64,000 bases of DNA from Fervidicoccaceae archaeon (GCA_038734945.1 JAVYOA010000002.1:310001-374000), one strand, 5' to 3'; shown: positions 25,426-44,467, counted from the stretch's first letter. Translations and numbers: made by a program. Notes: generated by a model not told the origin, from the sequence alone.

Positions 25426-27285
25426 CTATGTTGTTCGATGCTTCTGCATGGAAGGATGGGCTATGCTTGTGCTGAACAGCCGAAGCTCCTTCTCAGTAGG
25501 AAAAATCTTTATTGTGATCCTTTTTCTGTCCGTCCTCAATATGCCTGTTCCAATCGGAAAGTTGGCGAGGAGCTCTGACTCAGCATCTGATAGCTTGTAG
25601 ATCTCCTTTATTAGATCTGTTCCTTGGGGCTCCTGCTTTAGAAGCAGGACTGTAGAGGATTGCTCCAATATTGCTCTTCCCTGTATCTTCAATGCAAGAT
25701 CCTCCGCCCTTTGAGTAATATATAGAAAAGCGATTCCGTGCTTTCTCCCCCTCCTAGCTATTCCTTCAAGGAGAGATGCTATGCTGGGAGTTTCCATGAG
25801 GAGCCATGCTTCATCTATGAATAGAACGCTCTTCTCTGCTCTGCTAAGAAGCTTGTTGTAAGTATATGGTGCTATCATTGCTGTTATCAAAAGCTTAATT
25901 CTCCTGCTCTTTATCCCCCTCATCCCAAAGATCACAGATCCTTTCAATTTGGGAGATGTTCCTTCGAAGACATTGGAGTCAGGTGGGATCCCTGCCCCCT
26001 GGAGATATCTGCGGATCTCTGGGCTCTCAGCTCTCTCTATGACCTCCATCAGATTTCCCGAGCTTCTTGCTCCCCTGAATAGCTCCTTTCTGAGGATCCC
26101 CTGAAGTCTCTCTGGAATTCCATATATTTCAGCTAGGATTTCGGATAGCTGTTCAATCTCTATTGCTCCTTCCTTCATCAGCTTTACAGGATCTAGACCG
26201 AGCTTCTGCGACTCCTGGATCTCCACTGCCTCGGCACCAAATACCTCAGCAATTCTAGAGTACTCGCTCTCTGGATCAATACCAACAATAGGGATAGTTG
26301 GATCCATGCTTCTGAGCCTGCTGAGATACAGCTTTGCTGCCATGCTCTTCCCTGATCCTGTGGTTCCCAATATCGCGAAGTTGTAATTGTGCTTGCTCCA
26401 GAGGTCAAGGAGAATTGGAGAGCCCGTTCCTGAAAAGCCAAGAAATACTCCTCCTGGGTCAAAAAGCTCCTCATCGATCAGTGGGAAAAGGGCTTTCATG
26501 CTCTCTCCGCTTGTATAGCTCCTCTCTGCACAGAGAAAGCCCAGACAGGTTTCAAAGTTGTAGAGCTCTTTCTGAATGGGGACGGCCTCAGCATCTAGGC
26601 CAAAGCCTCTGAGCAGTGCTCTGAGCCTCCTCTCTTTCTCGTTCAGGTCATCCATTCCTGGAGATGTAAGTATTAGAAGAAAGAAGAGTTCGATCAGAGA
26701 TGATCCTGACATTATACTTGAGGCCAGTTCCTCGAGAGCCATGGCTTCCCAAGTCTCTTCGGTTCCTCTTCCTCCATTTATTTTCCTTCTTCTTGCCATC
26801 TCTAAAAACGGCAGAGCTCTATCTTTTCCAATTTCTCTGAAGATCAGTGCTATCTCAGATGCTTCGCTGAGGAGAACATATGCAAAACCTTCAGGAAGGA
26901 GGGAAGAATATCTATAGACAGTGAGTACCCTGGCAAGCATTCCGTTTTCAAGAACCAATGTAAATGGGTTCCTCAGACCAATTGATCTAGGCCGATGAGG
27001 TGGCTCAACCTTTCTTGCATTGAAGTGAAGAACATGTGTTCCTGACTTCACCCTCAGATAGAACTCATTTCTAAAAACTGGAATGCTATAGCTCGAATAT
27101 GAAAATGTGTCCTCTATCCTTCTAACGAGGAGGACTCCTTGCTTTGCATTGCTCAATAGAGATGAAAACTCAGAGAGCGCTATGTCTCTTTCCTGAGATG
27201 GAAGAATTGCGAAGCTAACTCCTTGCAGCAAATACCAGTCATGTTCTCCTCCTTTTCTCCATTTTTTATTGAATTTGCCCAGCAT
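25426..27285 (-). CDS. VirB4-like (type IV secretion / TedB-CedB class) ATPase
   Basis: GVFLG..G.PI.LD, Walker A GTTGSGKS, IDPESEY, Walker B IDEAW, ARRGRK.G....TQ, G.G.L. Confidence 0.85.
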   Translation of the reverse strand: MLGKFNKKWRKGGEHDWYLLQGVSFAILPSQERDIALSEFSSLLSNAKQGVLLVRRIEDTFSYSSYSIPVFRNEFYLRVKSGTHVLHFNARKVEPPHRPRSIGLRNPFTLVLENGMLARVLTVYRYSSLLPEGFAYVLLSEASEIALIFREIGKDRALPFLEMARRRKINGGRGTEETWEAMALEELASSIMSGSSLIELFFLLILTSPGMDDLNEKERRLRALLRGFGLDAEAVPIQKELYNFETCLGFLCAERSYTSGESMKALFPLIDEELFDPGGVFLGFSGTGSPILLDLWSKHNYNFAILGTTGSGKSMAAKLYLSRLRSMDPTIPIVGIDPESEYSRIAEVFGAEAVEIQESQKLGLDPVKLMKEGAIEIEQLSEILAEIYGIPERLQGILRKELFRGARSSGNLMEVIERAESPEIRRYLQGAGIPPDSNVFEGTSPKLKGSVIFGMRGIKSRRIKLLITAMIAPYTYNKLLSRAEKSVLFIDEAWLLMETPSIASLLEGIARRGRKHGIAFLYITQRAEDLALKIQGRAILEQSSTVLLLKQEPQGTDLIKEIYKLSDAESELLANFPIGTGILRTDRKRITIKIFPTEKELRLFSTSIAHPSMQKHRTT

Positions 27286-27328
27286 TTGAAAGCCTCCAGG
27301 GTTTTTTAAAGCACCTCTTTTTTCAGGC

Positions 27329-29323
27329 TCAAAGCAGAAAGTCCCAGGAAGCGGAGGGCCTTTTTCTCTTGTGCCTCTCGACGCTATCGCCTTGCTCGAA
27401 TTCTTCTGCCATTAATTTTATGCTATTTCTCAAAGCTTCTTTTCCCCTTTTCAGTACTCCCTCTTTATCTTCAATAGCGCTGTTTCTAAGCTCTTTCCAG
27501 CTCATGCCAGAGGCTTCTTTTAAAAGATGCTCCATTTCATTTGACATATCCTGCTCATTTCCTGCCTCATTTAGTTCCTCCTGCTTTCTTGGAAAGCCAA
27601 CCTTTTGCTTCATCGAAGCAATTCTCTCTGTTTCACTATTTTCCTTCCTTTTCAGCATCATCGGTGAGAGAAGAAAAGAATCTGATTTTCTGCTCAATGC
27701 ATTCCAATCACTAGCATCGTTCTTTTTCGCTCTGCGCTCCTTTTCTCCATGGAGCATGAGTCTGGTGATCCCACTTCCCGGGGGCTCTGAGCTGTACCTC
27801 TCTCTCAAAACTTTGCTGTTGGCGGAACTTATTGCCTTTATGGATCCTCTGTAGAGGGATCCTCCAACGGATGCAATTTTCTCTCCAACAAACGATGCCA
27901 TTCCGCCTCCAAATGCTCCCAGGAGACTGGGGACTATTCCTACTATAATAGGATAGAGAATGGCAAAAGTCACTTCTTTTGCAGGGAGGAGGGAGTTCAG
28001 AACTACTAGGAATATAGAGGTGAGGGGACCTGCTAAAAGAAGACCTGCGAAGATCCCTAGAATATGCTTCACAGATGCTCTCAATGCTGGATGCAGGTAA
28101 GCAATGCTCAACAAGGGAGAGGAGGAGACAATTGTGAGGAGGAGAACATATCTAGCGTATATAACAGTGCTGGAAACTGTTAGGAGAAAAGCAAGCATGG
28201 AGCCGTAGTTTGCCGCGAATGGGATGGCATATCCTAGTATTACACTGAGAGCCAGCTGCCCTGCAATCCATGAGAACACCCATCCAATATCTATGCTGCT
28301 CACAAAATGAAGCGATATTGTATTAAGCATGCTTGCTGTGGCGTTATATACTGAGGGGGCAAGGAATGCTAATGCTACTGCTGCTGAAGCATCCTTTATC
28401 GAATCAATCAGAGCTGAGAAGAAGTTATCCTCTCTGAATGCTCTTGCTGCGATATCGAAGGATAGAAACAGGCCTAGAAATCCCATGGAGGCCTTCAGTA
28501 TATATTCATAGAGATCGTGGAGCTCTCCGCTCTCAGGCATTATGGGAGCTGCTGCCAGCTTTCCTAAATCTAGCACGGGGAAAATTATGCTGGCGAACTT
28601 GTAGAGAGGGCAGAGCAGGCTGAAGGGCCAGTCAAAGGGGCAATACTCACTGTTCTGAATCATTATTGTGAATTCATTGAAGCCCTTTTCTTTATTATCA
28701 GAGACGTTTGCAGTCACTGTATATGCTCTGCTCATTTCTGTTGAGTTGAGTGCCGGATAGGAGTGAGAAAAAAGAATTTCATTGGAATTGGCAACACCAG
28801 TGCTAAATGTTCCGTCGCCCCAATCCACAGAGACGGTATAGGGAGGAGATCCCCCGCTCCATCTGATGGTCAGGTTGAAGGTGAGCTGGTCTGGTGCTGT
28901 TAGAGAAGTTGATGATGGATAGACCTCGACTGCTATAGCTCCTCCTATGTTCCCTCCTGCAAGACTGAACGAGAAGTAGCCCAATCCTATGAAGAGGATG
29001 CTCGCTATTAGGCTCCAGTATCCTTCTCTTCTCCCGATTGCTATGTAAATGGAGGATGAAGCAAGCATAATTCCTGCTAGTACATAGAATATCCAGAGAT
29101 AGCTGGAGGAAGAGCTAGGTGCACCATAAATTGCCTCAATCACGCCCCATCCAAAAGATGCCACAAGGATTGAGGAGAGGCCAAAGACAATGTAGCGGGA
29201 GTAGTTCTCCTTTCCAAGAACTCCAAGCATGATGCCGAAAAGGAGGCTTCCCGCCCCTAGAGCCTCACCTATCCAAAGGGCATAATCGATGAGCTTCAGA
29301 AGCAACCCGTATGAGCTCTCCAT
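27329..29323 (-). CDS. VirB6/TrbL-like polytopic membrane protein with N-terminal pilin-like hairpins and a PKD/Ig domain
   Basis: 4 N-terminal hydrophobic segments, PKD signature GGSPPYTVSVDWGDG..SHSY...YTVT..VSD, ~7-8 TM core, charged C-terminal tail; directly upstream of VirB4. Confidence 0.65.
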   Translation of the reverse strand: MESSYGLLLKLIDYALWIGEALGAGSLLFGIMLGVLGKENYSRYIVFGLSSILVASFGWGVIEAIYGAPSSSSSYLWIFYVLAGIMLASSSIYIAIGRREGYWSLIASILFIGLGYFSFSLAGGNIGGAIAVEVYPSSTSLTAPDQLTFNLTIRWSGGSPPYTVSVDWGDGTFSTGVANSNEILFSHSYPALNSTEMSRAYTVTANVSDNKEKGFNEFTIMIQNSEYCPFDWPFSLLCPLYKFASIIFPVLDLGKLAAAPIMPESGELHDLYEYILKASMGFLGLFLSFDIAARAFREDNFFSALIDSIKDASAAVALAFLAPSVYNATASMLNTISLHFVSSIDIGWVFSWIAGQLALSVILGYAIPFAANYGSMLAFLLTVSSTVIYARYVLLLTIVSSSPLLSIAYLHPALRASVKHILGIFAGLLLAGPLTSIFLVVLNSLLPAKEVTFAILYPIIVGIVPSLLGAFGGGMASFVGEKIASVGGSLYRGSIKAISSANSKVLRERYSSEPPGSGITRLMLHGEKERRAKKNDASDWNALSRKSDSFLLSPMMLKRKENSETERIASMKQKVGFPRKQEELNEAGNEQDMSNEMEHLLKEASGMSWKELRNSAIEDKEGVLKRGKEALRNSIKLMAEEFEQGDSVERHKRKRPSASWDFLL

Positions 29324-29612
29324 GCTGACTTCACTCTGTTCAAATGTGCTTTACTGGAAGAACGATAAGCAGGCTTCTTCCTCTCGGGTTTTCTCTATCG
29401 ATAATTTTTCCTTCCTATCTGCCTTTACTGGAAATCTGCCTTTTCCCAATTTCTCAAAAGATGAATTCCGGGAGGCAAAATCATCAACGATGAGGGGGGA
29501 AAGCTGCTGAAGCGTAAAAGGAGAGATATAGCTATTCAAGGGGGATCTCCATTTATAGGAATTCCCTTAAAAAGTTCCTCCTCAAATCATCTTTTAAGGG
29601 ATCCTTTTTTGA

Positions 29613-29927
29613 TTGGGAATCCAAATGGAGTTCGAAGCAAGATACATAAAGTTCATCTGGGTCAGGAACATTTCTCTGCTGAATGAAAAGGCTATTGGAA
29701 TTCTCAGAATGAAGCATATAGTTAGCATATTCATGACAATAGTTCTTCTTTGGGGCGGGCATGGAGAAGGATTGACCTCTTCCTGCATGGGATTGAGCCT
29801 TCTAATTTTCACAGCTCTCTCTGCACTTCTCAGCAATGGAGCAATGAGCTTTGAATCCAAAATAATAGCGCTATTGTATTCCTTCATTGAGCTCCTTTTG
29901 AATATAGCTGGGAGGAGAGACAATTGA
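29613..29927 (+). CDS. Small 2-3 TM membrane protein, VirB3/PrgI-like
   Basis: ISLLNEKAIGILRMKHIV followed by hydrophobic helices; its stop overlaps the start of the next ORF (TTGA). Confidence 0.5.
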   Translation: MGIQMEFEARYIKFIWVRNISLLNEKAIGILRMKHIVSIFMTIVLLWGGHGEGLTSSCMGLSLLIFTALSALLSNGAMSFESKIIALLYSFIELLLNIAGRRDN

Positions 29928-31711
29928 GAATCAATTTGCAATACTCCGTGAAGAGCTTCATCGAGCTTCCGCAGGAAATAGAAGAATTTTCATTGAGCCC
30001 CTTTGATCTGGAGAGCATAATCGCAAAGGGATTCGCTCTTCAACCTAGAATATCCTTGGATGGCATCCATGGAGATACATGGATAGGAAAGAGTAGCTGC
30101 GAGAGGGAGGTATTCATAAACAAGGATAGAGCCATATGCAATCCACTAGCAGGCTTTTCACACGAGAAGTTCGGAGTGGCTTTGACAAAGAACGGAAAGA
30201 AGTTCAGAGTTGAGGGGGGTGACGGATTGAAGCTGGAGGGTGAGAAATGCTCATATATGGAGGTTCCAGGAGCAATTATCATTTCAATATATGAGAAGCC
30301 ATATGCTCATATCGTAACATCCGACTATCTCTACGGTTTGAATGTTCATGAGAGGGCATACAGAGGGGAGCCGAGATCTGCTTCGGCTGGCTACAGAGCC
30401 TATACCACAATCTATGCTGACGGAAGGAGCCAGATATTCTGGGGAGGAAAAATAGAGGAAACCGGCATGCTCGCTCAGAGGGCATTGAGAGTTCAAAATT
30501 CAACATTTGTCCTCTCCTCTAGATGGTTAGTAAGGCTGGAGGAAGATCTTCCGAGACCTTTGGTCTTTCTTGGAGAAGAAGCTGATTTTCTGGGCCTCAT
30601 TAACGAGCAACCGGTATTCATGATAGGAGGAGCTCCCTATAGACTTGAGGAGGCCTCTCTTATTCCATTGAGACGCGTTGGAAAGCTTTCTCCTTCAGCT
30701 TCAATCTCAATCTACGATATAGCTGTTGTTTCCCTTCCGGGATGGCTCACAGTATATGATGAGGAGGAGAAAGAGATTCTGAAGGTTTCAAAGGGGGAGG
30801 ATTCTTGGTGCTGGGCAGTTAGGAAGAGCGTATTCTGCTGCACTAGAGGGCTATGCGGCGAGATCTCGGAAGGATCGTCGCAAATTTTTGTGAATGCTGA
30901 GAATTCTGAGGAAAGAGATCGCCATTCCATTGTTATAGATACGGAAGTCCCAGTGGTCATAGATGAAAATGGAGAAGAAAGGCTTCTCAGACCAGGAGAA
31001 AATGCCAAAATTAGCAGAAGCGATGTGAGTATTTTTGAGCCCTACATTTTCGATGTTAGGCTGAGGCACATTCTAGGAGCCGCCTCAGCTCCTATTCCCT
31101 CATCCCCCAGGAAAATCAAGCTGGAGGCAGAGGCAAGAGTGTTTGAGAGCACAGGGATCCATGAGTGCGGAAGGCCTTTTTTCCTTGAAGTAGAAGTTCT
31201 ATCCTTAGAAGCTCCGATGGAAATCAGGCTCTTTATTGAAGGAAAAGAAGTCAAGAGAGGTGAGAAGCTCGAGCTTTGCTTGGAAGAGCTTCCAGATTTT
31301 CTGCATCCCAGAGCATTTGATCCCGTTACCCAGAGATCGATTGAACTTGATCCTCTTATTGTGAACAGAGTGTTTGTGCATGAGCCCAGCCTGGGAATTG
31401 AGATCGAGCACCATGAGGGGAGAAGCGAGATCCTGCTGAAGACAAATGCTGAAGAGGTGAGAGGAAAGCTGATATGCAGCAACAGAGAATTTGGGCTGAA
31501 AATTCCCAAAAGCTTAATTGAGAACTGCCAGCTCCCTGCTTACTTCAGCTTGGAGCTTAGAAAGAACGGCTTTATATATCAGAGGAGGAAGGATATAGTA
31601 ATTGAAGACCTTGACGAGGACATTGTGAAAAAGCTGAAGAATGGAGAGAACGAGAGCAGAATTGGCGGATTTCTGATTCGATATTATGCTTCTCTCGGTC
31701 CTAGCTCTTAG
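29924..31711 (+). CDS. Uncharacterised 595-aa beta-rich protein (propeller-like N-terminus?)
   Basis: Long ORF with native codon style, many short beta-strand-like segments, no TM segment or signal peptide. Confidence 0.65.
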   Translation: MRINLQYSVKSFIELPQEIEEFSLSPFDLESIIAKGFALQPRISLDGIHGDTWIGKSSCEREVFINKDRAICNPLAGFSHEKFGVALTKNGKKFRVEGGDGLKLEGEKCSYMEVPGAIIISIYEKPYAHIVTSDYLYGLNVHERAYRGEPRSASAGYRAYTTIYADGRSQIFWGGKIEETGMLAQRALRVQNSTFVLSSRWLVRLEEDLPRPLVFLGEEADFLGLINEQPVFMIGGAPYRLEEASLIPLRRVGKLSPSASISIYDIAVVSLPGWLTVYDEEEKEILKVSKGEDSWCWAVRKSVFCCTRGLCGEISEGSSQIFVNAENSEERDRHSIVIDTEVPVVIDENGEERLLRPGENAKISRSDVSIFEPYIFDVRLRHILGAASAPIPSSPRKIKLEAEARVFESTGIHECGRPFFLEVEVLSLEAPMEIRLFIEGKEVKRGEKLELCLEELPDFLHPRAFDPVTQRSIELDPLIVNRVFVHEPSLGIEIEHHEGRSEILLKTNAEEVRGKLICSNREFGLKIPKSLIENCQLPAYFSLELRKNGFIYQRRKDIVIEDLDEDIVKKLKNGENESRIGGFLIRYYASLGPSS

Positions 31712-31929
31712 CTTTGTGAGATGCTTTTGAGTGAGGCGAAACAGCTGTATCTATTCTCATTTCAGCAGAGCTGTGCTTTTGGCTGAAGGTATAGCTGATA
31801 TGGAATAGATGATGCCTATTCACTTTTGAATTGTACACAATTTTCCTGAATCGAATCCATGAAGGATTGCCTTTTTCAGCAGTTTCAAAATAGATATGTT
31901 TGAATATTGGTGGGTATAGAAGAATATTG

Positions 31930-32537
31930 ATGTCCGAAAAGCTCTATACAATCAAGGAGGCGAAGAAGCTTCTTGGAGTCACCACCTGGACTATTCAGCA
32001 ATGGGATAGGCAGGGCAAGATTAGGTGTGTTAGAACTGTGGGGGATGAAGGAGGATCCCTGAAAGTGAAATAAAACGCATCCTTGGTTTAAGAGAGGAAA
32101 GAATTGTCGTAGGGTATGCAAGGGCTTCATCTTCAGCACAAAAGGATGATTTAGAAAGACAGAAACAACTTATTTCAAGCTACGCTAAGGAGAAAGGTTA
32201 TGGTGAAATTCAAGTTTTAACGGATGTTGGTTCTGGACTTAACGAAAAAAGAAAAAACTTCCTGAAACTCTTAGATATGGTTTCGGAAAGGAAAATCTCT
32301 AAAGTTATAGTCGCTTACGAAGATAGGCTCACGAGGTTTGGTTTTGAAACCTTAAGGAAAATGTTCTCAGCTTTCGGAACAGAAATAGAAGTAATAAATC
32401 ATGAAGGGAAGACACCTCAAGAAGAGCTTGTGGAAGACTTAATCACCATAGTTTCCCACTTCGCTGGAAAGCTCTACGGTATGAGGTCACACAAATATAA
32501 GGAGGTTGGCGAAGGTGTCAAGAAGCTTGTTGGTTAA
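31930..32537 (+). pseudogene. tnpA: IS607 serine recombinase TnpA, frameshifted
   Basis: MerR-like HTH (YTIKEAKKLLGVTTWTIQQWDRQGKI) stops at 32071-32073; catalytic part ([36 protein letters not shown]) is in another frame after TGA 32046-32048. Confidence 0.88.
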
Positions 32538-33717
32538 GGCATACTCAATACCGCATAACCTTGAGGTAAACGGGCTTATAGAGGATTACATGCGTGTCCT
32601 CAACGCTATCTTGGAGGATCTATGGAAGAACATTGCATGGGAGAGGAGGGGTAAGAGGCTTATACCGTTTCCTAGGAAGGACAAGACCTTCAGGAAGGAG
32701 CTTAGGGACAAGTACCTTAAGGGTTGGGTTTATTCCAAGCATTACGTGGACTCCGCGATTAAACAGGCTTATTCCGTGCTCGAGTCCTGGAGGAAGAGGT
32801 ACCTCCGCGGGCGGGCTGGAAGAAGAAGACCTGAGTTGAAGAGGAAGTTCGTGAGGGTCAAGGAAACCCTCTACAGCTACAGGGATGGTGTGCTCAGGAT
32901 TTCGATTAAACCCTATGAAGAAAGCGTGACCGTAGATTTGAGGAAGGCGTGGTGTTTGGATAGGATAAGGGGATTGGAGCTCGGCGAACTCATACTTAAA
33001 CAGGACAGGCTCATAGTTACTGTTAAAAGAGAGGTGGAGCTAAAGATTAAAGACCCAATATCATGGGACACGAACCTCTTAACCTTAGATGGCTTTGATG
33101 GTGAAAAGCATTACTCGATAAGCCTGAAGGAAATCTACACAATTCATAGAACCTATGAGCTGAAGAGAAGGATTATCCAGAAGCTACATGGAAAAATGAG
33201 GAAGAAGCTCCTGGAGAAGTACCGCTCGAGGGAGAGGAACAGGATTGACGACGCGCTGCACAAGCTGGCCAGGCAGCTCTCAGGCAGGACAAATATCTTT
33301 GAAGACCTGAAGAACTTCAAGGAGAGGGTGGCTAGGACGAAGAATAGGAGCATGAACAGGCAGAACAGCAAGCACGACTACATCAAACTGCAAAAGTATG
33401 TGGAATACAAATCTGCGTGGAATGGTTATGCTACCATATATGTGAAGGCGAAGGGCACCTCGAAGACCTGCTCCAAATGCGGGTACTACAACAAAGACCT
33501 AAGGGGAGCAGTCTTCAAGTGCCCAAAATGCGGACTTGTAATCGATAGGCAGAGGAATGCATCAATAAACATTTGGAAAAAGTTCCTTAGGATGTGGGGA
33601 TTCATGGGTTCACCCCGAAAGGAGCTAACCCCGATGAGCCCTCCAATGAACCCTGAGGAGGACAAGAGGGATGAAGCTCAAGGACTAAGTATGGATTCCA
33701 TACGTATCCACACTTAG
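32506..33717 (+). CDS. tnpB: TnpB RNA-guided nuclease family protein
   Basis: RuvC-I SWDTN, RuvC-II FEDL, Zn finger [14 protein letters not shown], RuvC-III region [10 protein letters not shown]; start may be GTG 32515. Confidence 0.92.
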
Positions 33718-34159: not shown

Positions 34160-34534
34160 ATGGCAAAAAGGAGCATTTCCTCGATTTTGGTAGCAATCGC
34201 CATGACATTGATTATTCTTGGTATGTTCACAGCAATCTACAGCAAACTGGAATTTTCTACAAACGCTCTTCGGGAAAAAACTCAGAGCTCAATATCTATG
34301 GCCACAGTCCTAGCTCTCAGGAATGGAGATAGAAACTATGAAGTTATCATATACAATTACGGTGATAGAATCATTGAGAAAATGACAATAGCATATAGCA
34401 ATGGCACTGCAATTGAGTATGAGAATGTCTCTTCAATAAAGCCAAAATCTCTGGTAACGCTGGTTGTCAGTGGAATCCCAATTTTCTATATGGATGCTGC
34501 TGGGGAAACAGGCAGAATAGAGGTGGTCAACTAG
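34160..34534 (+). CDS. Type IV (class III signal) minor pilin
   Basis: MAKRS|ISSILVAIAMTLIILG hydrophobic helix; IYNYGD beta-sandwich motif. Confidence 0.75.
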   Translation: MAKRSISSILVAIAMTLIILGMFTAIYSKLEFSTNALREKTQSSISMATVLALRNGDRNYEVIIYNYGDRIIEKMTIAYSNGTAIEYENVSSIKPKSLVTLVVSGIPIFYMDAAGETGRIEVVN

Positions 34535-34968
34535 TGAGAACCAGGGCCCTTGCAGAAGCCATGGCCATAGTGCTAATAGCGATTGTCTCTCTCCTTTTCA
34601 CCATTTTTCTGAGCACAGTGAATGAGAGAATCGCTGGAGAAACTGCGGAGAGAGCAGAAATGGTCAGCGATATGTCGCTCAGGAGCGTGGAGACTCTGTA
34701 CTTAAGCTTAAGCGAGAGTCATCCGTGCATAAAGAGCAATTTGAGGACTCAAATAGTGGCGCTCATTTTCTTCAGTCCAAATACGACGGAGCTATACAGG
34801 CATGATTCCAACCCGATCGAGGTCCAAGTAGGCTCCTGCATTCAGCTGAGCGAAATAGAATCGAAATCTCTCAAAGGTGTATGGAAGCTTCTCGTGATAA
34901 CTGTCCGCGGAAACGTCCACAGCTGGAACTCCACATTTCAGATTCAAGGTGTGAAGATTGAACCATAG
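34534..34968 (+). CDS. Type IV (class III signal) minor pilin
   Basis: MRTRA|LAEAMAIVLIAIVSLLF; C-terminal VITVRGN. Confidence 0.75.
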   Translation: MRTRALAEAMAIVLIAIVSLLFTIFLSTVNERIAGETAERAEMVSDMSLRSVETLYLSLSESHPCIKSNLRTQIVALIFFSPNTTELYRHDSNPIEVQVGSCIQLSEIESKSLKGVWKLLVITVRGNVHSWNSTFQIQGVKIEP

Positions 34969-36763
34969 GGGAATTGCGGAGGGAATTGGCGTCATTCTTT
35001 TAGCCCTGATGCTTACATCCTTCATCTCCATTTTAGCCTACGGAACGAGGCATGCAGAGAGCATAATCAGAACTGAGAGCAGCATCCAGTCAATATTAAG
35101 CTTGAGAAGAGCAGAGAGGATAGTATTTGGGGTAAATGGAAGCACATTGCTGGCAAAGAGCACTATTGAAACTGAGGCAGTTATGCTAGTAGTTTTCTGG
35201 AGCAATACTGTTTACTATTCCAATGAGAGCAGAATCCCTCTGCAACCTGGAGACTGGACTCTCCTTCCATTGCCACAGGAAGTAGCAGCTCTCATACTTT
35301 CATCAGGAAATGCTTCTCTAGGAATAATAACTCGCTACGGGAACTTCTTCGTTTTCACTCCGAATGATCTGGGCTCAATGAATGCATCGGTAAATCAAAT
35401 TCAATTTCTGAGATCTGGGGTCCTGCAGAGGGCAGGGAGCTTCAGTATTTACTATGTTGGAAATAGCTCGGCAATATATTCCTCATATCAAGCGACTGTG
35501 AGCGGTACATATGTAAAAGATTATTCAATGGGAAATGTTTTTGCCTCGCTCTCTATGTCCCTCAGCTCCTTTACTCCAATTTGGTCCCCCATTCTCATAT
35601 TCTATTCAGGAGATGTCTCCATAACTGAGAAATGGAACTGCAGCATTGTGAACGTGACTGTGGAAGATAGGGCTGGAGGAAAGATCAGCTTCTCTGCCTA
35701 TGCTAATGGAACGCTTATCAATAAGAGCACTGTGAATACCACGCAGGGCAGGTCGCTCAAGCTATTTTTATTTGATTTCTCATCGCAGAAGTACTCGAGC
35801 TCAGACGTGAAGATATTCTCGCTTCCAAGCGGTCCTGAGGTCTATGTCGTTTCAATAGTTCCCGTTCTATTCTCTGGGAGCTTCTACATTTACGCTACTT
35901 CGATTCTAGATGGAAGCTTGCTTTCCCTCAGCTACGGATCTCAATCCTCCAGCTCAAGCTCCTATTTATCCCCTCCAGGGAACATGGCTACTCCGAGCTA
36001 CATATATGCTGGATTTGTGAGCTTGATAGAGGGGGGATCTTACATCTATTATGATGGGAGCTTCAATTCCAGAACATCATCTCCCCACAGCATAAGCATT
36101 GAGCTGATAGACCAATCAACTCTTTCTGCCGCGATTGCTACAATCAATGTTGCTACCGCACTGCTTACAGACTACTATGGGGCTGGATATATAAGCTTCT
36201 TGGAACCTCCGGTGAATGTCAGCATGACTGGATTCAGCACTGTAATAAATGCGAAATCCTGGGATCTAAACAGGACTCCTGGAAGCTCAAACAGTTACTA
36301 TCAAGCACAATCTAGCATAACTTTTCCTGGAAGCTGCAGCGCCCAGGTCCTGGGAAAGATCTCGCTCTCAATTTCGTTCACAAATGCGGGAGGAAGCGCT
36401 ATTAATGGACCTCAGCCTAGTCCTCCACCCTACATCCCTACAGCACCTCCGTCGATATACTACATTCAGACTCCGATGCCAATGAATGGCACATCAATAG
36501 CAACGACAGTCTACTTATATGCTGAGAGAATTAACAGCAATCTCACTGCTAACTACATTAAAATAAATTTGGAGGACGGATCTTCTGAGAGCTTTTGGAA
36601 CGTTCCCTTCTCGATTATTTCCTCTCCGATAGGAGAGGTGTATGGGATAGCAATACCTCTAGATGGAGATTCTCGATATTCTTTGAGCATAACTGTGCTC
36701 TTTAACGGACAGAGGCTGGCGTATGGAACATTCTACAATTATCTTGCTCCATCTAATCCTTGA
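34958..36763 (+). CDS. Large pilin-like adhesin (class III signal, Ser/Thr-rich, many N-x-S/T sites)
   Basis: MNHRG|IAEGIGVILLALMLTSF; IITRYGN matches the motif in the preceding pilin; long extracellular-type C-terminal region. Confidence 0.72.
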   Translation: MNHRGIAEGIGVILLALMLTSFISILAYGTRHAESIIRTESSIQSILSLRRAERIVFGVNGSTLLAKSTIETEAVMLVVFWSNTVYYSNESRIPLQPGDWTLLPLPQEVAALILSSGNASLGIITRYGNFFVFTPNDLGSMNASVNQIQFLRSGVLQRAGSFSIYYVGNSSAIYSSYQATVSGTYVKDYSMGNVFASLSMSLSSFTPIWSPILIFYSGDVSITEKWNCSIVNVTVEDRAGGKISFSAYANGTLINKSTVNTTQGRSLKLFLFDFSSQKYSSSDVKIFSLPSGPEVYVVSIVPVLFSGSFYIYATSILDGSLLSLSYGSQSSSSSSYLSPPGNMATPSYIYAGFVSLIEGGSYIYYDGSFNSRTSSPHSISIELIDQSTLSAAIATINVATALLTDYYGAGYISFLEPPVNVSMTGFSTVINAKSWDLNRTPGSSNSYYQAQSSITFPGSCSAQVLGKISLSISFTNAGGSAINGPQPSPPPYIPTAPPSIYYIQTPMPMNGTSIATTVYLYAERINSNLTANYIKINLEDGSSESFWNVPFSIISSPIGEVYGIAIPLDGDSRYSLSITVLFNGQRLAYGTFYNYLAPSNP

Positions 36764-36813
36764 AGGATTTTTTCTAGCTTTTAAAGCTCTCCTTCATCTT
36801 CTGGGGATGAAAA

Positions 36814-37095
36814 ATGCATTTGCACTTCTACATTCTGAGCTTCTTCTTAAAGTTAGAGTCCCAGGTATTTACAGTATCTCCGGAGCCTCCTCCTGGAATA
36901 AGCGAGGCAATCATGAAGCTGCTTTCATGGTTAGCCTGGATAGGGTGGGTATCAGTTGCTGCTGCTTTAATTGCAGGGGGAATTAGCCTAGTCCTTGGCT
37001 ACATGGAAAGAGGAAAGAGGCTGATTCTTGGAGCCATTCTTGGAGCCCTGATTCTGGCATTCTACAGCGCTATTATCTCAGGGCTCATAGGATAA
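36814..37095 (+). CDS. VirB2/TrbC-like conjugative-type pilin (CedA1/TedC-like)
   Basis: Leader, Pro-rich linker, then two hydrophobic helices joined by a basic loop (ERGKR); no class III signal; own TATA-like TTTTAAAG at ~36779. Confidence 0.62.
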   Translation: MHLHFYILSFFLKLESQVFTVSPEPPPGISEAIMKLLSWLAWIGWVSVAAALIAGGISLVLGYMERGKRLILGAILGALILAFYSAIISGLIG

Positions 37096-37154
37096 ATATA
37101 CAGAGATTTTTTTGCCCTTTTTTAAGCCCCTTTTACTCTCTTGGAGGGATATAC

Positions 37155-37616
37155 TTGAGAAAAATCTGCAGAGCAAGAAAAATGAGGGGGATGAGCTCGG
37201 AGCTCATAGTAATGATATCCGTGGTCCTCATAGCGATGGTAGCAGTCTTTGCTCTTAGAGGATGGCTCTCCACCCAGCTAGGGAGGATGGGCAACATAGA
37301 CATGGCAGAGGCAACCTTCACCAGCACTTCAGTCAATCCAAGTAGCATGGTTATTGTAATTAATGTGAAGAATCTCCTTCCGAACCAAATAAGCATCATA
37401 GGATTTCAGATACTTCTCTCCAATGGAACTGTGCTCACTGGAAATTCAGCAGGTATTTCAACTTCGCCTGCCCTTCCAACAGCAGTAGCAGGAAAATCCG
37501 ATGGACTCTTAACCGTGTTCCTGAACAACATGCAGAATAGCATTCTGAAGATCAGCGTGAATGTTCAAGACAATTCGACTGGACAGACACAGTGGATTTC
37601 TGCGGTTGGAAGCTAA
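37155..37616 (+). CDS. Probable major type IV pilin
   Basis: RARKMRG|MSSELIVMISVVLIAMVAVF; INVKN beta domain; own TATA-like TTTTTAAG at ~37119. Confidence 0.78.
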   Translation: MRKICRARKMRGMSSELIVMISVVLIAMVAVFALRGWLSTQLGRMGNIDMAEATFTSTSVNPSSMVIVINVKNLLPNQISIIGFQILLSNGTVLTGNSAGISTSPALPTAVAGKSDGLLTVFLNNMQNSILKISVNVQDNSTGQTQWISAVGS

Positions 37617-37647
37617 CTTCTCGGTCCTCATGGGGAGGCTAAAAATA

Positions 37648-39066
37648 ATGGGGATCATCCTGGAAAGAAAATTTTTCTCTGAAAAAGAAAGGAAAGTAGG
37701 GACACTTTTTTGTAGTGAGGATAAGCACCTCCCCCCTGAAAGCTCCACCCCGCACGAAAATCTTCCTTTGAGGTATAGAGTAGGAGCATATGATGTTCAA
37801 ATAGTGAGGAGCAACGGTGTTTATGAGTACCGCATATGTACAAAGAAGGAGCTGGGCGATCTTCATAATCTCATAGAGTCCAGGCTAGAGGAGATAATTC
37901 TCCTCATGAGAAAAGGGGCAGATGCAGGAGATGTTCTAACAAGCGTGCTCGGAATTCCTAGAGAAAAGGTCCCTGATGCCTTGTTTGTGCTCAGGAGCAT
38001 TCTTGAATATGGGAAAATCCAGGCTCTGCTCGGCGATGCTCACATCCAGGATATAAGCATTGAGGGGGCTGATAGAGTATGGATAAGGCACTCGCTCATT
38101 GAAAAAATGGATGAGGATCAGGACTTCATTCCTACCAATATATTTTTTCAGAGCGTTGAGGAGGTGCTAGTGCTGCAGCAGATAATTGCAACGAAATGCA
38201 ATGTCTACGTCTCCATGAGCAATCCCATTGTGGAGGCACAGCTTCCAGCTGCAGATGGAGGACATAGGGTTCACCTAGTCTTCCCATCTATATCTCAGAA
38301 CAGACCTGAAATAGTAATAAGAAAGAGACTGCAGCGCCCTCCAAGCATTAAGAATCTCTCCGAGAGGGGGGTAATCCCAGATGCTGCTGTGGAGCTTCTA
38401 AGGGGAATAATTGCTGCCAGAGCTTCAGCAATAATAGCAGGACCACCTGGTTCAGGAAAAACTACACTTCTCAGAAGCATACTTCACTACTTGGTACCGA
38501 GAACATGGAAGGTCCTCGTAATTGAAGATACAGGCGAAATAGATCCGCCTCCAGGGTCTCCTTGGACAAAGTACACAACGTTTGAGCTAGGTTCAGTGAA
38601 AATAGATCTTTTCGATCTGGCCAAGGCCTCTCTCAGGGCTTCAGGAACAAAGATCATAGTTGTTGGTGAGACGAGAGGCTCTGAGGCACAAGTCCTCTCC
38701 CAGGCAATGCTTGTGGGATTGGGAGCGCTCACAACTTTCCATGGGTCCAGCCCAAGCGAAGTCATCTCCAGGCTCATGAGCCCTCCAATCAACTTGAGGG
38801 CTCCCCAGATAGGAATGTTCCAATATTTGTTCGTACTTGGATTTGGAAAATCTCCGAGAAGGCAGCTAAAGTCACTGTCGGAGCTAAGCTACAGCGTAGA
38901 GAAGAAAATGGTTGAGCATAGAGTGATTTGGTCCAGGGAAGTTGATGGAATGAAAATTGACCCCGAGGAAATGCTTCGTAGGAGTGAGAGGTGGAAGGAG
39001 CTTCTGAAGAGGTCAATGGATGCTTCACATGGTGGAGATGAAGTTGAGGATCTCGCACAAGCTTAG
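37648..39066 (+). CDS. Type II/IV secretion-pilus assembly ATPase (TadA/CpaF/VirB11 family)
   Basis: IQDISIEG, Walker A GPPGSGKTT, Asp box IEDTGEI, Walker B IVVGETRG.EA, His box TTFHG; start after GGAGG RBS. Confidence 0.92.
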   Translation: MGIILERKFFSEKERKVGTLFCSEDKHLPPESSTPHENLPLRYRVGAYDVQIVRSNGVYEYRICTKKELGDLHNLIESRLEEIILLMRKGADAGDVLTSVLGIPREKVPDALFVLRSILEYGKIQALLGDAHIQDISIEGADRVWIRHSLIEKMDEDQDFIPTNIFFQSVEEVLVLQQIIATKCNVYVSMSNPIVEAQLPAADGGHRVHLVFPSISQNRPEIVIRKRLQRPPSIKNLSERGVIPDAAVELLRGIIAARASAIIAGPPGSGKTTLLRSILHYLVPRTWKVLVIEDTGEIDPPPGSPWTKYTTFELGSVKIDLFDLAKASLRASGTKIIVVGETRGSEAQVLSQAMLVGLGALTTFHGSSPSEVISRLMSPPINLRAPQIGMFQYLFVLGFGKSPRRQLKSLSELSYSVEKKMVEHRVIWSREVDGMKIDPEEMLRRSERWKELLKRSMDASHGGDEVEDLAQA

Positions 39067-40492
39067 GGAATCCTGCAGAAGGCATCTGATATCACTGTAT
39101 CCGGGAGTTGAGGAATATGCTGGAGCTAGGAGAAGGCTGAAAATCCTCTGCATTTTAACAGCGACTTCTCTTGTCATGATATCAATTGAGCTTGCTTTTA
39201 GAGCAAGCGCCTTCCCTCTCCTTATCCCCCTTCTCCTCTTTCCAATATTGACTGCACTTGAGATTTCTGCTGCTTTTGTGAGGAAAGCTCTGCTCAATGA
39301 AAGGCTTGAGCAGGAGCTTCCATTCCTGGTAGTTGCCTCTGCCTCTTTTTCCAGAACTGGGCTCGAGCTATCAGAGCTTCTAGAGCATGTTGCCAAGAGC
39401 AGCGTTTTCAGAGGAGCAAGGATGATAGGCGAGAAATACATAATTCTATCGAGATTATTTGGAAGGAATCAGGCCCTGAACTTTATCTCCAAAATTATTT
39501 CAGGAAAGAGCAGGTTCCTCCTATCGGAGTACAGCGTTTCTCTTTTAATAGGAACGTCAGTTCAGTTTCTCAGAGAGAGGGCAGGCGATATACTTAAGAG
39601 CTCAGAGACAATGGTTGACAGGGCAATCCAGCTCAGAGCAACAATTGCAATGATAGCAATAGTTCTCTATGGCCTATTTCCCAGCATCCTCATTGGAATG
39701 GCATTTATCCAGTCAATGAGCATCAGTGAGAGTGAAAACAGCTCTGGCTCCTTGGCCCTGCTCACAATGGGATTGACTTCCGCTAGCTTGCCTGCTGTTT
39801 TAGCTGCAATACCAGACTATCCTCTTTCCATGCTAGTTCTACTGTCCCAGAAGGCAAGCAAAATCTTTAGGGCTCTCTTCATAATTGGACTTATTGCTTT
39901 GATTTTGCCATCAGTGCTCCTCATCTATTTTCCGGAAGAGAGCTTCTCAGAGTTCGCTGTGATCTCTGCTGCAATCTCATGCATTCTCGGCATCCCATCT
40001 TTCTTTTATCCTCTTCTCTCAATTATAACTAGCAAGGTCGATCTCATAGCAGAGGAAATGTTGAACCATGCGAGAGTATGGAGGAGCCTTCACTTATTCA
40101 GATCCGCTGAGCTCGAAAGATTGGAAAGAAGGGATGTGAAGCCATGGATAGCAGAATTCATTGCTGAGATGCTGGAATTCTTCAGGGGCCTGGGAGACTG
40201 CAATCCCTCAATATTCGAGACTTTCGTTTCATTTATCAGTGAGAGCAGGAGAAGTGCTATGCGATTTACTATGAGTCTAGTACTCCTCATGATAGCTTCC
40301 ATAGCTTCCCCTATAATGAATGCAATGATTATCAGAATTTCTCCAGCCCCCAATAGCTCTCTATTGCTATCAGGGTATGTGAGCACGATTGCCATGGGAT
40401 TAATCGCGGGAAAGCTCTCCATAGGTAAAAACATGAGCACTTTTCTCCCGTCCATTTCCGCAATGCTCTATATCATTCTCGCCCCTCTCTGA
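39020..40492 (+). CDS. TadB/TadC-like pilus platform membrane protein
   Basis: Multi-TM protein with LEQELPF...S..G..L motif; directly follows the ATPase. Confidence 0.78.
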   Translation: MLHMVEMKLRISHKLRESCRRHLISLYPGVEEYAGARRRLKILCILTATSLVMISIELAFRASAFPLLIPLLLFPILTALEISAAFVRKALLNERLEQELPFLVVASASFSRTGLELSELLEHVAKSSVFRGARMIGEKYIILSRLFGRNQALNFISKIISGKSRFLLSEYSVSLLIGTSVQFLRERAGDILKSSETMVDRAIQLRATIAMIAIVLYGLFPSILIGMAFIQSMSISESENSSGSLALLTMGLTSASLPAVLAAIPDYPLSMLVLLSQKASKIFRALFIIGLIALILPSVLLIYFPEESFSEFAVISAAISCILGIPSFFYPLLSIITSKVDLIAEEMLNHARVWRSLHLFRSAELERLERRDVKPWIAEFIAEMLEFFRGLGDCNPSIFETFVSFISESRRSAMRFTMSLVLLMIASIASPIMNAMIIRISPAPNSSLLLSGYVSTIAMGLIAGKLSIGKNMSTFLPSISAMLYIILAPL

Positions 40493-40523
40493 GCATAATC
40501 TACCTGAATTTTCATGGAAGGGG

Positions 40524-42509
40524 ATGGATTTTGCTTTTCAAGAAGCCAATGGTTTATCCCATCCAGAAAAGATTCTCTCATATTTTATCTGCGTGATCAA
40601 GATGCTCCTCGAGATATTTCCCAGACTAAAAGGGACAAAGCTCAACATCAACATCTTAGGACCAAGCTTCACATTCTGCATAATGAAAGATTCCGCTAAG
40701 CTCCACATACTGCTGGATACATCGACGTCGCCAAACACACTGCGAACCTACTTTGAATCTAGGCAGTTTAGCTACGATAATTTCCTGGAAGCACTAGGAA
40801 GATCAGTCTATGCATCTGAGGCAAGGCTCAAGAGAGAGGAAGATTTTTGGCTTGGCAATTTCAGCATCTCAGATCTTCCGGGAACTATGGATTCACTTGA
40901 CTATCCATCTGCTGTGTGCTTATCTATCTCGAGGAGCTTGGAGCTCAGCAGGATTTTTTTGAAGCATTCAGCAGGACTCATCAAGAGGGCATCGAAAAAC
41001 GGAGATTACTTTCTCAGATCACAGGCTGAAATCTTTCGAAATATTATGAATAGGGTCCTACTCTTGAAATTAGTTCTGCTGGCTGGGGGAAGAGAAGATA
41101 TTAGAAAAATAGAGAAGCTGATTGATTCCCTTTCTATCGCTAAGCTCAGCTGGATGCGACACATTGTGAATACAAGTCAAGAAATATCGGAGCTTCTGAA
41201 GCCCCCCACAATTAGCCTTTTCGAAACTCTCATTGGGAAGACTAGAAAGATAACAGTTCTCGAGGAAAATTTGAGAGAGATGATTTTCCTTCCGGATCCC
41301 TCCATTTACAGAATAGACTTTTCCAGAGGTTCCCCTCTGCCCCTTCTCTCTGCAGAGAGAGTTGGAAAGAGAGCGTTCAGGATTGGTCTGCTTGAGAATG
41401 GAAAGGAGTTTAGATTGAGCGTTGAGGATCTCTACAGGCATACATACATAATTGGACGAACTGGCTCAGGAAAAACCAGCTTCATGAAGCTCCTAGTTCA
41501 CAGGATGAATGATCTGGGCGATCTCTCGCTGATTGTCGTGGATCCTCACGGAGATATGGCTAAGGAGCTTGCCGAGGAAGCTGCAAATTCAAAATATTTC
41601 CATCCAATCAACAGCCCGTTTGGCATAAACCCCCTTGATTTGCCGAATATGAATAGCAGAGAGCACGCTGTTTCAATAGCTGTGGATGTTGCTCTAGAGA
41701 TCTTCAGGGATGTGCTTAGACTCACTGAAAGCGCTGTGAATGTTAAATACATGCTCCAGGTGATCCTCAGAATTCTGTATGAAAAAAATGACTCGCCAAC
41801 TCTCGCGCAGCTCTATGATATGATATTGGATCTTCATGAGGGGAAAATAGAGAGGATCACAAGCGATGAAAAATGGGAAAAGCAGCTCAGAGTTCTTCAG
41901 AGGATGCAGAGCCAGAGCTTCATCTCAGCTCTCTCGAGGCTGGAGCCATTTGCACATGACAAGCTCCTCCTTAGAATAACCAGCAGAACAACTGTTGATT
42001 TCAGCGAGCTCATGCAGCCAGGGTCTCTTGCTCTATTCTCTGTTCCCAAGGCTGACCTTGGAGAGCACCTAGCTAAGCTCATTGCATCAGCTATAATTAT
42101 GAAGCTCTGGTTTCAAATTCTTGCGAGAGCGAGAAGTGATGAGAAGAGAACTCCCGTGTTCTTGGTTGTGGATGAATTCCAATTCATAGCTGATTTCCCG
42201 ATTATTGATACTATTCTATCGGAAGCTAGAAAGTTCGGGTTGCATTTAGTGATGGCCCACCAACACACTGGACAGATCTCGAGGGAACTATTTCAGTCAA
42301 TTATGACCAACTGCGCTGTGAAAGTCAGCTTCGCAGTCGAGGGGGAAGATGTAGCAAGACTCTCCACAATGGATGCTGCTTTTTCAGAGGCCATAGAGAG
42401 AAGCCTTGGCTCCCTCACTGTTGGAAAAGGCATTGTAAAAATAACTGGAAATTCTGGAGAGCAGCAGCCGCCTCCTGCAATCGTTACCTTTGATTATATT
42501 GAGAAATAG
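40524..42509 (+). CDS. VirD4/TraD-like coupling-protein ATPase (HerA/FtsK superfamily)
   Basis: RHTYIIGRTGSGKT, VVDPHGD, INPL, VVDEFQ, LSEARKFGL.L.MAHQ...QI, N. Confidence 0.8.
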   Translation: MDFAFQEANGLSHPEKILSYFICVIKMLLEIFPRLKGTKLNINILGPSFTFCIMKDSAKLHILLDTSTSPNTLRTYFESRQFSYDNFLEALGRSVYASEARLKREEDFWLGNFSISDLPGTMDSLDYPSAVCLSISRSLELSRIFLKHSAGLIKRASKNGDYFLRSQAEIFRNIMNRVLLLKLVLLAGGREDIRKIEKLIDSLSIAKLSWMRHIVNTSQEISELLKPPTISLFETLIGKTRKITVLEENLREMIFLPDPSIYRIDFSRGSPLPLLSAERVGKRAFRIGLLENGKEFRLSVEDLYRHTYIIGRTGSGKTSFMKLLVHRMNDLGDLSLIVVDPHGDMAKELAEEAANSKYFHPINSPFGINPLDLPNMNSREHAVSIAVDVALEIFRDVLRLTESAVNVKYMLQVILRILYEKNDSPTLAQLYDMILDLHEGKIERITSDEKWEKQLRVLQRMQSQSFISALSRLEPFAHDKLLLRITSRTTVDFSELMQPGSLALFSVPKADLGEHLAKLIASAIIMKLWFQILARARSDEKRTPVFLVVDEFQFIADFPIIDTILSEARKFGLHLVMAHQHTGQISRELFQSIMTNCAVKVSFAVEGEDVARLSTMDAAFSEAIERSLGSLTVGKGIVKITGNSGEQQPPPAIVTFDYIEK

Positions 42510-43225: not shown

Positions 43226-43301
43226 TGCGGCGGCCGGGATTTGAACCCGGGATTGCCGGCGTGGCAGGCCGGCGTCCTAATCCAGGCTAGACGACCGCCG
43301 C
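43226..43301 (-). tRNA. tRNA-Gly(GCC); CCA not encoded
   Basis: Reverse complement GCGGCGG...CCGGC-CT-GCC-AC-GCCGG...GGTTCAAATCC...CCGCCGCA. Confidence 0.96.
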
Positions 43302-44443: not shown

Positions 44444-44467
44444 CCTTCAACTTCTATAATATTAAAT

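Follow-up and report, generated by a model that had tools for sequence, protein, structure and literature searches.

The 64,000-nt stretch of a Fervidicoccaceae archaeon (GCA_038734945.1 JAVYOA010000002.1:310001-374000), termed the window here and numbered from its first letter, harbors a locus at 25426-42509 that appears, with moderate confidence and on the basis of homology, to combine two modules in a composite that resides in the chromosome and is laid out as two divergent operons. [quoted passage not shown] The other is predicted to be a complete type IV pilus (T4P) assembly set, which comprises a FlaI/TadA-type ATPase, a TadC platform, three small pilins, and a 601-aa pilin-like protein. 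An earlier note on this DNA had described such a hybrid and was partly confirmed: the gene set that it claimed is real and its observation largely right, with three corrections concerning divergent genes, an inserted insertion sequence (IS), and a VirB3-like gene that could not be verified.

The locus is organized as two divergent units, which flank an intergenic region at 29324-29708. The minus-strand unit consists of the gene for a 664-aa polytopic membrane protein (27329-29323), followed 43 nt downstream by that of the 619-aa VirB4-like ATPase (25426-27285); since these VirB4 and channel genes diverge from the others, the locus is not the single co-oriented run that had been claimed. On the plus strand, a 72-aa open reading frame (ORF) with two transmembrane (TM) helices is succeeded by the gene of a 595-aa beta-propeller protein, an IS607-type element, and pilin-like genes of 124, 144, and 601 aa, after which a 93-aa two-helix protein, the fourth pilin-like protein, the FlaI/TadA-type ATPase, the TadC-like platform, and the 661-aa VirD4-like ATPase are encoded. 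The region 34160-42509 is tightly packed, adjacent genes either overlapping or being separated by gaps of at most 86 nt. T4SS and T4P genes are interleaved in it, with the VirB2-like gene located between pilin genes and the VirD4-like gene 31 nt past the TadC-like gene, an arrangement that bears out the claim of both modules in one locus.

All three motor ATPases proposed in the earlier note (VirB4-like, TadA/VirB11-like, and VirD4-like) were recovered through Pfam, NCBIfam, and PDB matches, and at the level of family assignment their identity can be considered secure. The VirB4/TrbE-like ATPase (619 aa, minus strand) carries the Pfam domains AAA_10, DUF87, and TraG P-loop, and it matches the NCBIfam VirB4-type models conju_CD1110 (1e-31) and TraC (8e-31) as well as the VirB4 structure 4ag5 in the PDB (3.7e-20); 85 homologues of it were found. 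The VirD4/TraG-like coupling ATPase (661 aa, 40524-42509, plus strand) contains TrwB_AAD_bind (1e-13), T4SS-DNA_transf (5e-8), and TraG-D_C (1e-7) domains in Pfam, and further matches were obtained to conju_CD1115 in NCBIfam (1e-16) and to HerA (1.8e-6) and TrwB (2.3e-4) in the PDB. With pNOB8, the VirB4-like protein shares 34.6% identity over 622 aa with a 630-aa DUF87 protein (E 1e-109), and the VirD4-like protein 37.8% over 437 aa with a 1025-aa DUF87 protein (E 6e-86). When the plasmid collection PLSDB was searched with the VirB4-like protein by tblastn, Sulfolobus conjugative plasmids ranked at the top, five of them with 34-35% identity across 96-98% of the protein, and a Thermococcus nautili 33-3 plasmid was also matched (31%).

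Ced and Ted are domesticated T4SS (PMC9905601), of which CedD and TedD are the VirD4-like parts (PMC11823120). Against the NCBIfam equivalog model of CedB (NF041017, cut-off 700 bits) the VirB4-like and VirD4-like proteins scored 33.6 and 41.5 bits, and against that of CedD (NF053655, cut-off 600 bits) the VirD4-like protein scored 58.5 bits. By sequence comparison, the T4SS genes of the locus are not Ced equivalogs but clearly related to TrbE/TraG-type genes found on conjugative plasmids of Sulfolobales. The coupling ATPase had been presented as lying outside the described Ced core, which was overtaken by the publication of CedD and TedD in 2025 (PMC11823120, PMC11868833); because of these reports, the component is no longer new.

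The candidate VirB6/CedA-like channel is the 664-aa polytopic membrane protein on the minus strand, which displays 8 hydropathy peaks and an external PKD domain and whose C-terminal tail is long and charged. None of its 15 homologues carries a Pfam domain; one of 530 aa from Desulfurococcus aligns along residues 2 to 467, and a 604-aa 10-TM protein of pNOB8 shares 23.7% identity over 355 aa (E 4e-11). The candidate VirB2/CedA1-like conduit pilin is a small membrane protein with two TM helices by hydropathy (36814-37095, plus strand), whose length would be 93 aa from the ATG at 36814 or 60 aa from that at 36913. A 106-aa 3-TM protein of pNOB8 matches the window at 36871-37080 (33% over 72 aa, E 3e-7), so that the gene probably starts at 36814. 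Moreover, hhalign related the small protein to the N-terminal hairpin of the channel family with a probability of 91.1 (E 1e-6). As controls, 100 shuffles all stayed below 50 (maximum 10.9), the sequence in reverse scored 15.1, and four TadC hairpins scored at most 0.5. The same relation of a pilin to a channel N-terminus has been reported for CedA1/CedA and VirB2/VirB6 (Beltran 2023, PMC9905601). The labels VirB6-like and VirB2-like accordingly denote candidates, named from plasmid homologues, topology, and the internal relation between the small protein and the channel. On the T. nautili 33-3 plasmid (11752-17490), a 130-aa ORF directly upstream of VirB4 weakly resembles the small protein (E 0.02), and an 890-aa hypothetical protein comes after VirB4; the order small protein, VirB4, large protein may represent a conserved archaeal conjugation cassette. 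As to the VirB3/PrgI-like protein of the earlier note, the sole candidate is the 72-aa 2-TM ORF (29709-29927, plus strand; hydropathy), whose stop overlaps the start of the next gene, and it could not be substantiated: no Pfam match was found at E<=10 and hhalign to the channel family returned a probability of 0.5.

Of the 46 annotated coding sequences on the pNOB8 stretch that was compared, four have homologues in the locus (VirB4-like, VirD4-like, polytopic, and small membrane proteins, with E values from 1e-109 to 3e-7), a fifth, an unrelated TnpB, matches the IS, and 41 gave no match in the window at E<=0.05. In contrast with pNOB8, the locus has no integrase, ParA/ParB, or att repeat and lies with native codons in a chromosomal housekeeping context, whereas pNOB8 has no homologue of the pilus ATPase, TadC, the pilins, or the beta-propeller protein of the locus.

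The T4P module brings together, in one operon, a FlaI-type ATPase, a TadC platform, and class III-like pilins, the combination by which an archaeal type IV pilus is recognized. The assembly ATPase (37561-39066, plus strand; database form 486 aa with its start at 37606) belongs to the FlaI/TadA (T2SSE) family, as revealed by Pfam (T2SSE 7e-23) and by the NCBIfam models FlaI (2e-44), TadA (5e-34), and VirB11 (2e-22). It has 115 homologues at E<=1e-40 and no close relative among PLSDB plasmids, where the best match was a bacterial CpaF (32%). The TadC/T2SSF-like polytopic platform (490 aa, 39020-40492, plus strand), whose gene overlaps the end of the ATPase gene, gave no sequence match in Pfam, NCBIfam, or the PDB. 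The earlier assignment of it nevertheless finds support in 8 hydropathy peaks, in Atlas feature scores of 0.95 to archaeal clusters with T2SSF in 21-25% of their members, and in a structure match (TM-score 0.74 over 440 residues) to an archaeal cluster with 25% T2SSF members.

Four plus-strand ORFs of this module have short, basic N-termini followed by a small residue and then one hydrophobic helix. The first (124 aa, 34160-34534), with the N-terminus MAKRSISSILVAIAM and one N-terminal hydrophobic helix, matched the NCBIfam models UpsB (2.4e-4; 21.2 bits, cut-off 70) and UpsA (2.7e-3; 17.9 bits, cut-off 130), both scores remaining below the equivalog cut-offs. The second (144 aa, 34534-34968; N-terminus MRTRALAEAMAIVLIA) overlaps the previous stop with its start and has no family match. 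The large pilin-like protein of 601 aa (34958-36763; N-terminus MNHRGIAEGIGVILLAL) is a candidate tip adhesin or minor pilin, and the fourth, with a class III-like N-terminus, is a 153-aa ORF (37155-37616) whose likely start at 37182 gives MRGMSSELIV..., with a weak match to Pfam DUF7248 (0.005, below the cut-off). Read by eye, the N-termini KR-S/ISS, R-A/LAE, R-G/IAE, and R-G/MSSE, each followed by a hydrophobic helix, resemble the class III signal peptide motif. The claim of four class III pilins therefore stands as far as the N-termini are concerned, while only one of the four has a family match, the weak one to UpsB (2.4e-4). By size class and gene order, the 601-aa protein may correspond to the 620-aa 'predicted pilin' arCOG11777 of F. 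fontis. In the Makarova 2016 supplementary table, the pilin arCOGs of F. fontis and of D. fermentans bear the label of the Ups/Bas-related 'subclade 4I', which could be carried over to the window pilins on grounds of size and gene order.

The genomic setting is that of a chromosome. The 27 flanking genes are housekeeping genes, an rRNA operon among them, with functions such as cobalamin salvage, threonine synthesis, aldehyde:ferredoxin oxidoreductase, spermidine synthase, rRNA, and SRP54. The window comes from a thermophilic archaeon, and its archaeal 16S-23S operon (44789-49542) has 62% G+C vs ~45% elsewhere. The Pfam scan covered 61 window ORFs (24 and 37, namely all of at least 130 aa outside the rRNA genes and antisense overlaps) and 9 short ORFs or IS pieces, and among them no tyrosine integrase, ParA/B, or replication gene was found in the 64 kb; the plasmid maintenance genes (ParA/ParB, replication/PlrA region) are not in the window. 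At the right border lies a tRNA-Gly(GCC) gene (43226-43301, minus strand), called by both ARAGORN and Rfam. Repeats of it and of its flanks elsewhere in the window are just 15-22-nt conserved stretches inside other tRNA genes, and the region 23000-45000 contains no long direct repeats; from what is visible, the tRNA-Gly gene is not an att site. In G+C content and codon use, the seven large locus genes stay inside the range of the 27 housekeeping genes, with a relative synonymous codon usage (RSCU) distance of 0.094-0.154 vs 0.067-0.193 and a G+C fraction at third codon positions (GC3) of 0.457-0.489 vs 0.455+-0.033. Both the native codon style and the lack of a replication gene or att repeat asserted in the earlier note were thus reproduced by these codon, Pfam, and repeat searches. 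Housekeeping flanks, native codon use, and the lack of an integrase and of an att repeat fit a locus that is resident in the chromosome and non-mobile, and it may be 'domesticated'.

The linkage between pilus and channel genes recurs in relatives. In F. fontis Kam940, genes 93-97 encode a pilin (620 aa), a pilin (144 aa), a 126-aa protein, a 4-TM protein, and VirB4 (619 aa), and genes 81-84 a TadC-FlaI-pilin-2TM set, the two groups together lying within 17 kb (Makarova 2016 supplementary table). In D. fermentans, two 'membrane proteins associated with conjugation system', of which one has 530 aa and 9 TM according to the supplementary table, stand in one run with a pilin and FlaI, with VirD4 upstream and TadC and two more pilins downstream, and the central part of that run, namely the two conjugation-associated membrane proteins, the pilin, and FlaI, is found in D. 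kamchatkensis (Makarova 2016). In addition, seven metagenome contigs of 18,144 to 278,264 bp, recognized by eye from coinciding sizes, are common to the 85 VirB4 and 115 ATPase matches, the shortest of them being 18,144, 23,619, and 23,641 bp. Several genera possess VirB4-like homologues with 46-58% identity, and contigs of 0.1 to 1.5 Mb carry some of them. A FastTree phylogeny of 74 VirB4 homologues, built from the first 81 matches minus 7 shorter than 560 aa, with four remote matches excluded and rooted on a Sulfurisphaera sequence, placed the window protein beside a Fervidicoccus sp. sequence.

The plus strand has two further features. The beta-propeller protein (595 aa, 29924-31711) has no TM helix and no signal peptide, and its AlphaFold2 (AF2) model is confident (pLDDT 91.9) and all-beta; the top Foldseek matches are beta-propellers including DDB1, BamB, COPI, and PorZ. 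A relaxase or nuclease hidden in this 595-aa protein was considered and is ruled out by the confident fold. A PDB sequence search gave just a chance-level match (E 4.2), and no usable Atlas match was obtained. In an 18-sequence alignment of the family, K290, C296, C305, H382, and L384 are invariant. Beta-propeller 'sialidase-like' proteins have been reported on two thaumarchaeal integrated conjugative elements (ICEs) (PMC5797428), which may hint, by analogy, at a role on surface glycans. About 220 nt past the end of the beta-propeller gene begins the IS607-type element (31930-33717, plus strand; Pfam MerR, Resolvase, and Cas12f1-like_TNB), whose tnpA is split by one frameshift near 32046-32075 into a MerR helix-turn-helix part (31930-32073, 2e-7) and a resolvase domain (32049-32537, 1.2e-23) in different frames. 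Its tnpB (32506-33717; Cas12f1-like_TNB 1e-19) is foreign by GC3 (0.634 vs 0.455+-0.033 in housekeeping genes), and no second copy of the element exists within the window. The claim that no integrase is present accordingly holds for tyrosine integrases in the window, but a frameshifted serine-recombinase tnpA lies inside the locus. The copy of the locus in this genome may be partly impaired, because the IS607-type insertion is accompanied by a truncated neighboring beta-propeller gene. Proteins identical to the VirB4-like and channel proteins are encoded in a public metagenome-assembled genome (MAG) named Fervidicoccaceae archaeon, whose assembly seems to break near the IS: one contig of 19,617 bp carries the VirB4-like and channel genes, and another of 10,817 bp the pilus ATPase gene. 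A doubtful 181-aa ORF (33685-34230, minus strand) shares sequence with both the tnpB end and the beginning of the first pilin gene; it has no Pfam or NCBIfam match, a GC of 0.399, and an RSCU distance of 0.189, a value at the upper limit for housekeeping genes.

Besides the pNOB8-type plasmids, three known systems come close to the locus. The Ced system of Sulfolobales, most Desulfurococcales, and Acidilobales shares with it chromosomal VirB4/VirB6/VirB2/VirD4-like parts, the lack of a relaxase, and the resemblance of a small protein to the channel N-terminus, as in CedA1 and CedA (PMC9905601). Pilus-mediated contact plus a T4SS-like channel is likewise the established logic of Ups and Ced (PMC9905601, PMC11823120). 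In contrast, Ced and Ups are encoded at separate loci, whereas pilus and channel genes share operons here, and the locus proteins fall far below the CedB, CedD, UpsB, and UpsA equivalog cut-offs. The Ted system of Thermoproteales (TedA-TedD, with a ParA/VirC1-like protein and, in some genera, Rad50) also has a chromosomal VirB4-type ATPase, not of the CedB/CedD type, and a coupling-type ATPase in the same locus. It differs in that the VirB4 of P. calidifontis is arCOG04034 and that of F. fontis arCOG04035 (a comparison of entries in the Makarova 2016 table), and in that the large T4P locus of P. calidifontis is ~390 kb from the Ted genes (Makarova 2016 supplementary table); of the Ted accessory genes, neither ParA/MinD nor Rad50 has a Pfam match in the 61 window ORFs. 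In the same table, the neighborhood of the P. calidifontis VirB4 (TedB; genes 737-742) includes a FleN/MinD ATPase and an arCOG05605 protein, which are paralogues of accessory genes in the distant clade-4G T4P locus (genes 313-329); Ted, too, may have taken over components of a pilus locus, even if no linkage exists between the two loci in that species. The arCOG10497/10500 entries of this table, 'membrane proteins associated with T4P' in Caldivirga and Vulcanisaeta, were considered as candidates for TedA/TedC.

Fervidicoccus and Desulfurococcus are absent from the Ced/Ted supplementary table of PMC11823120, and VirB4, not CedB/CedD, is reported for Fervidicoccales, Thermoproteales, and Desulfurococcus (PMC11868833). 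Homologues of the locus system were observed in MAGs labelled Ignisphaera and Thermosphaera, two genera whose cultured species are listed with Ced (PMC11823120 supplementary table). Some lineages may carry both Ced and a locus-type system, which would weaken the 'complementary distribution' of PMC11868833. The third comparison concerns thaumarchaeal ICEs, which combine VirB4, VirD4, VirB6, and VirB3 with TadC, FlaI, PilT, a prepilin peptidase, and pilins (PMC6563490). By family names, the hybrid T4SS and TadC/FlaI/pilin repertoire is common to them and the locus, and T4SS-T4P hybrids are in that sense already known. The ICEs differ by att repeats in tRNA genes, integrases, TFIIB/ParB, cargo, and deviant GC, none of which was seen in the locus. 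A literature search whose coverage ended short of subscription journals found no text on chromosomal operons that fuse T4P and T4SS genes in either Fervidicoccales or Desulfurococcales, and passages of PMC4158269, PMC6393860, and PMC6668835 contain nothing on such hybrid loci.

The locus is best read as a third flavor beside Ced+Ups and Ted, conserved in Fervidicoccales and Desulfurococcus and struck by an IS in this genome. It probably encodes a chromosomally fixed system, of pNOB8 type in its DNA-transfer core, with the predicted function of contact plus DNA transfer. The pilus module would build adhesive filaments, with the large pilin as an adhesin, by which like cells would be drawn together. 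The T4SS module would then provide the membrane channel, in which the small protein could make a short conduit for DNA, VirB4 would power assembly, and the VirD4-like ATPase would handle the DNA. Since no relaxase is encoded, host nucleases would supply the DNA substrate, as proposed for Ced and Ted. Transfer might proceed as import, as in Ced, or as export, as in plasmids, and sequence alone cannot tell the two apart.

Several points weigh against this reading. No relaxase was found in the locus or the window by Pfam and NCBIfam scans, nor in the structure of the beta-propeller protein, and the right border is marked by a tRNA gene, as is the case for many sites of integration. The plus-strand gene run is split by the IS, and the beta-propeller gene is ~100 C-terminal residues short of its full-length relatives (676-703 aa; 28 relatives found), of which no remnant was detected by tblastn in the window or by profile search over six frames of 31500-34400. 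The channel protein has no match to VirB6 in Pfam, in the PDB by sequence (single and 15-sequence profile), or in Foldseek, which with an AF2 model of pLDDT 62.5 matched only the PKD domain (~residues 130-225), and no PDB entry, those of TedC, CedA1, and VirB2 included, was matched in sequence by the small protein at E<=10. Because the solved VirB6, TedC, CedA1, and VirB2 structures are unmatched, the two labels do not derive from a direct match: the VirB6-like protein of the earlier note holds through the 10-TM homologue of pNOB8 but not through VirB6 itself, and the VirB2-like pilin through the 106-aa pNOB8 match and the hhalign score of 91 but not through the PDB. Pfam scans detected no prepilin peptidase (FlaK/PibD) in the window; its gene lies at another genomic site in F. 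fontis and D. fermentans (Makarova 2016 supplementary table). The synteny in relatives is drawn from one supplementary table of 2016 and from coinciding contig sizes. Ignisphaera labels appear in two places of the VirB4 tree, in which 14 of the 74 tips are named and support values were not inspected, and an Archaeoglobaceae sequence is among the VirB4 matches. The closest pilus-ATPase matches (64-65%) include a Thermofilaceae MAG, while a Fervidicoccaceae match stands at 58%. Vertical descent is not established, because just 14 tips are named and Ignisphaera appears twice.

The rival that best survives, though it is rather unlikely, is that of an immobilized, decaying remnant of a T4SS+T4P ICE of the thaumarchaeal type, which would have lost its integrase, replication, and partition genes and serve no host function. 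It draws on the shared repertoire of thaumarchaeal ICEs (VirB4/VirD4/VirB6/VirB3/TadC/FlaI/pilins; PMC6563490), and on Ca. Nitrosocaldus, which has one integrase-less, 'immobilized', vertically inherited ICE and beta-propeller proteins common to its ICEs (PMC5797428). The tRNA-Gly gene at the border, the IS insertion with its truncated neighbor, and a T4SS core ~35% identical to plasmid genes would also suit such a remnant. However, the seven large genes are all intact ORFs with native codon use, no att repeat was found, and the homologues with 46-58% identity are spread over several genera, partly on the contigs of 0.1 to 1.5 Mb. Moreover, the F. fontis locus genes are interspersed with Kdp and FabG genes (Makarova 2016 supplementary table), which argues for long residence, not recent decay.

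Somewhat less probable is a stronger version of the composite, in which pilus and channel form one envelope apparatus and not two cooperating machines, chromosomally fixed across Fervidicoccales and Desulfurococcaceae and perhaps the ancestral archaeal conjugation apparatus. The TadC/FlaI platform might then, for instance, be a docking site of the coupling ATPase, or the VirB2-like conduit might be guided or borne by the type IV filament, and the operon-level fusion, also seen on thaumarchaeal ICEs, could have given rise to the split Ups+Ced of Sulfolobales.

A DNA-uptake machine, comparable to ComB and pilus-dependent transformation, has a smaller chance still: the pilus would reel in free DNA, which VirB4, VirD4, and the channel would import with no cell-to-cell conduit. 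The importer function of Ced (PMC9905601, PMC11823120), the promotion of transformation by pilus systems in several lineages (PMC6668835), and the lack of an encoded relaxase are all in keeping with it. Yet the four T4SS genes have their closest relatives on self-transmissible plasmids, which work through mating, the locus encodes a VirB2-like conduit protein, and Pfam scans revealed no PilT retraction ATPase in the window.

It is improbable that the locus is a surface-structure or protein-secretion system, in which HerA/FtsK-type ATPases would serve pilus or adhesin biogenesis and no DNA would be transported. Some bacterial T4SS transport proteins only, and the external PKD domain of the channel protein and the 601-aa pilin-like and beta-propeller proteins could be accommodated by such a function, but the VirD4-like protein has the DNA-binding domain of coupling proteins and a TraG-D_C domain, and the homologous four-gene set sits on pNOB8, which is typed as conjugative. 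That two independent systems are adjacent by chance, for which the opposite strand of VirB4 and the channel gene and the ~390 kb between Ted genes and the large T4P locus in P. calidifontis might be adduced, is very improbable against the position of the VirB2-like gene amid pilin genes, the 31 nt between the TadC-like and VirD4-like genes, and the recurrence of the linkage in Fervidicoccus, two Desulfurococcus genomes, and seven metagenome contigs.

Three further observations concern the rest of the window. A 122-nt Rfam tRNA match at 5811-5932 (minus strand), not called by ARAGORN, is probably an intron-containing tRNA gene. A 140-aa ORF at 44466-44888 (plus strand) runs into the 16S rRNA start at 44789 and is probably no gene. 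At 20964-24043, the aldehyde:ferredoxin oxidoreductase gene is followed by that of a radical SAM/SPASM protein, with which it may form an enzyme-maturase pair.

Among hyperthermophilic archaea, the exchange of chromosomal DNA is understood just for Ced+Ups of Sulfolobales, and structurally for the Ced/Ted pili. Fervidicoccales and Desulfurococcus are in neither the Ced nor the Ted listing of PMC11823120, and one paper notes just the presence of VirB4 there (PMC11868833). The locus reveals what the VirB4 of these groups belongs to, namely a four-gene core common to self-transmissible plasmids, kept without any plasmid functions inside pilus operons. If functional, it would be a natural case of co-inherited and probably co-regulated contact and transfer modules, and it would join plasmid conjugation, thaumarchaeal ICEs, and the domesticated Ced/Ted into one evolutionary series. 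Meanwhile, it suggests that the filaments are worth seeking in cultured Desulfurococcus or Fervidicoccus.

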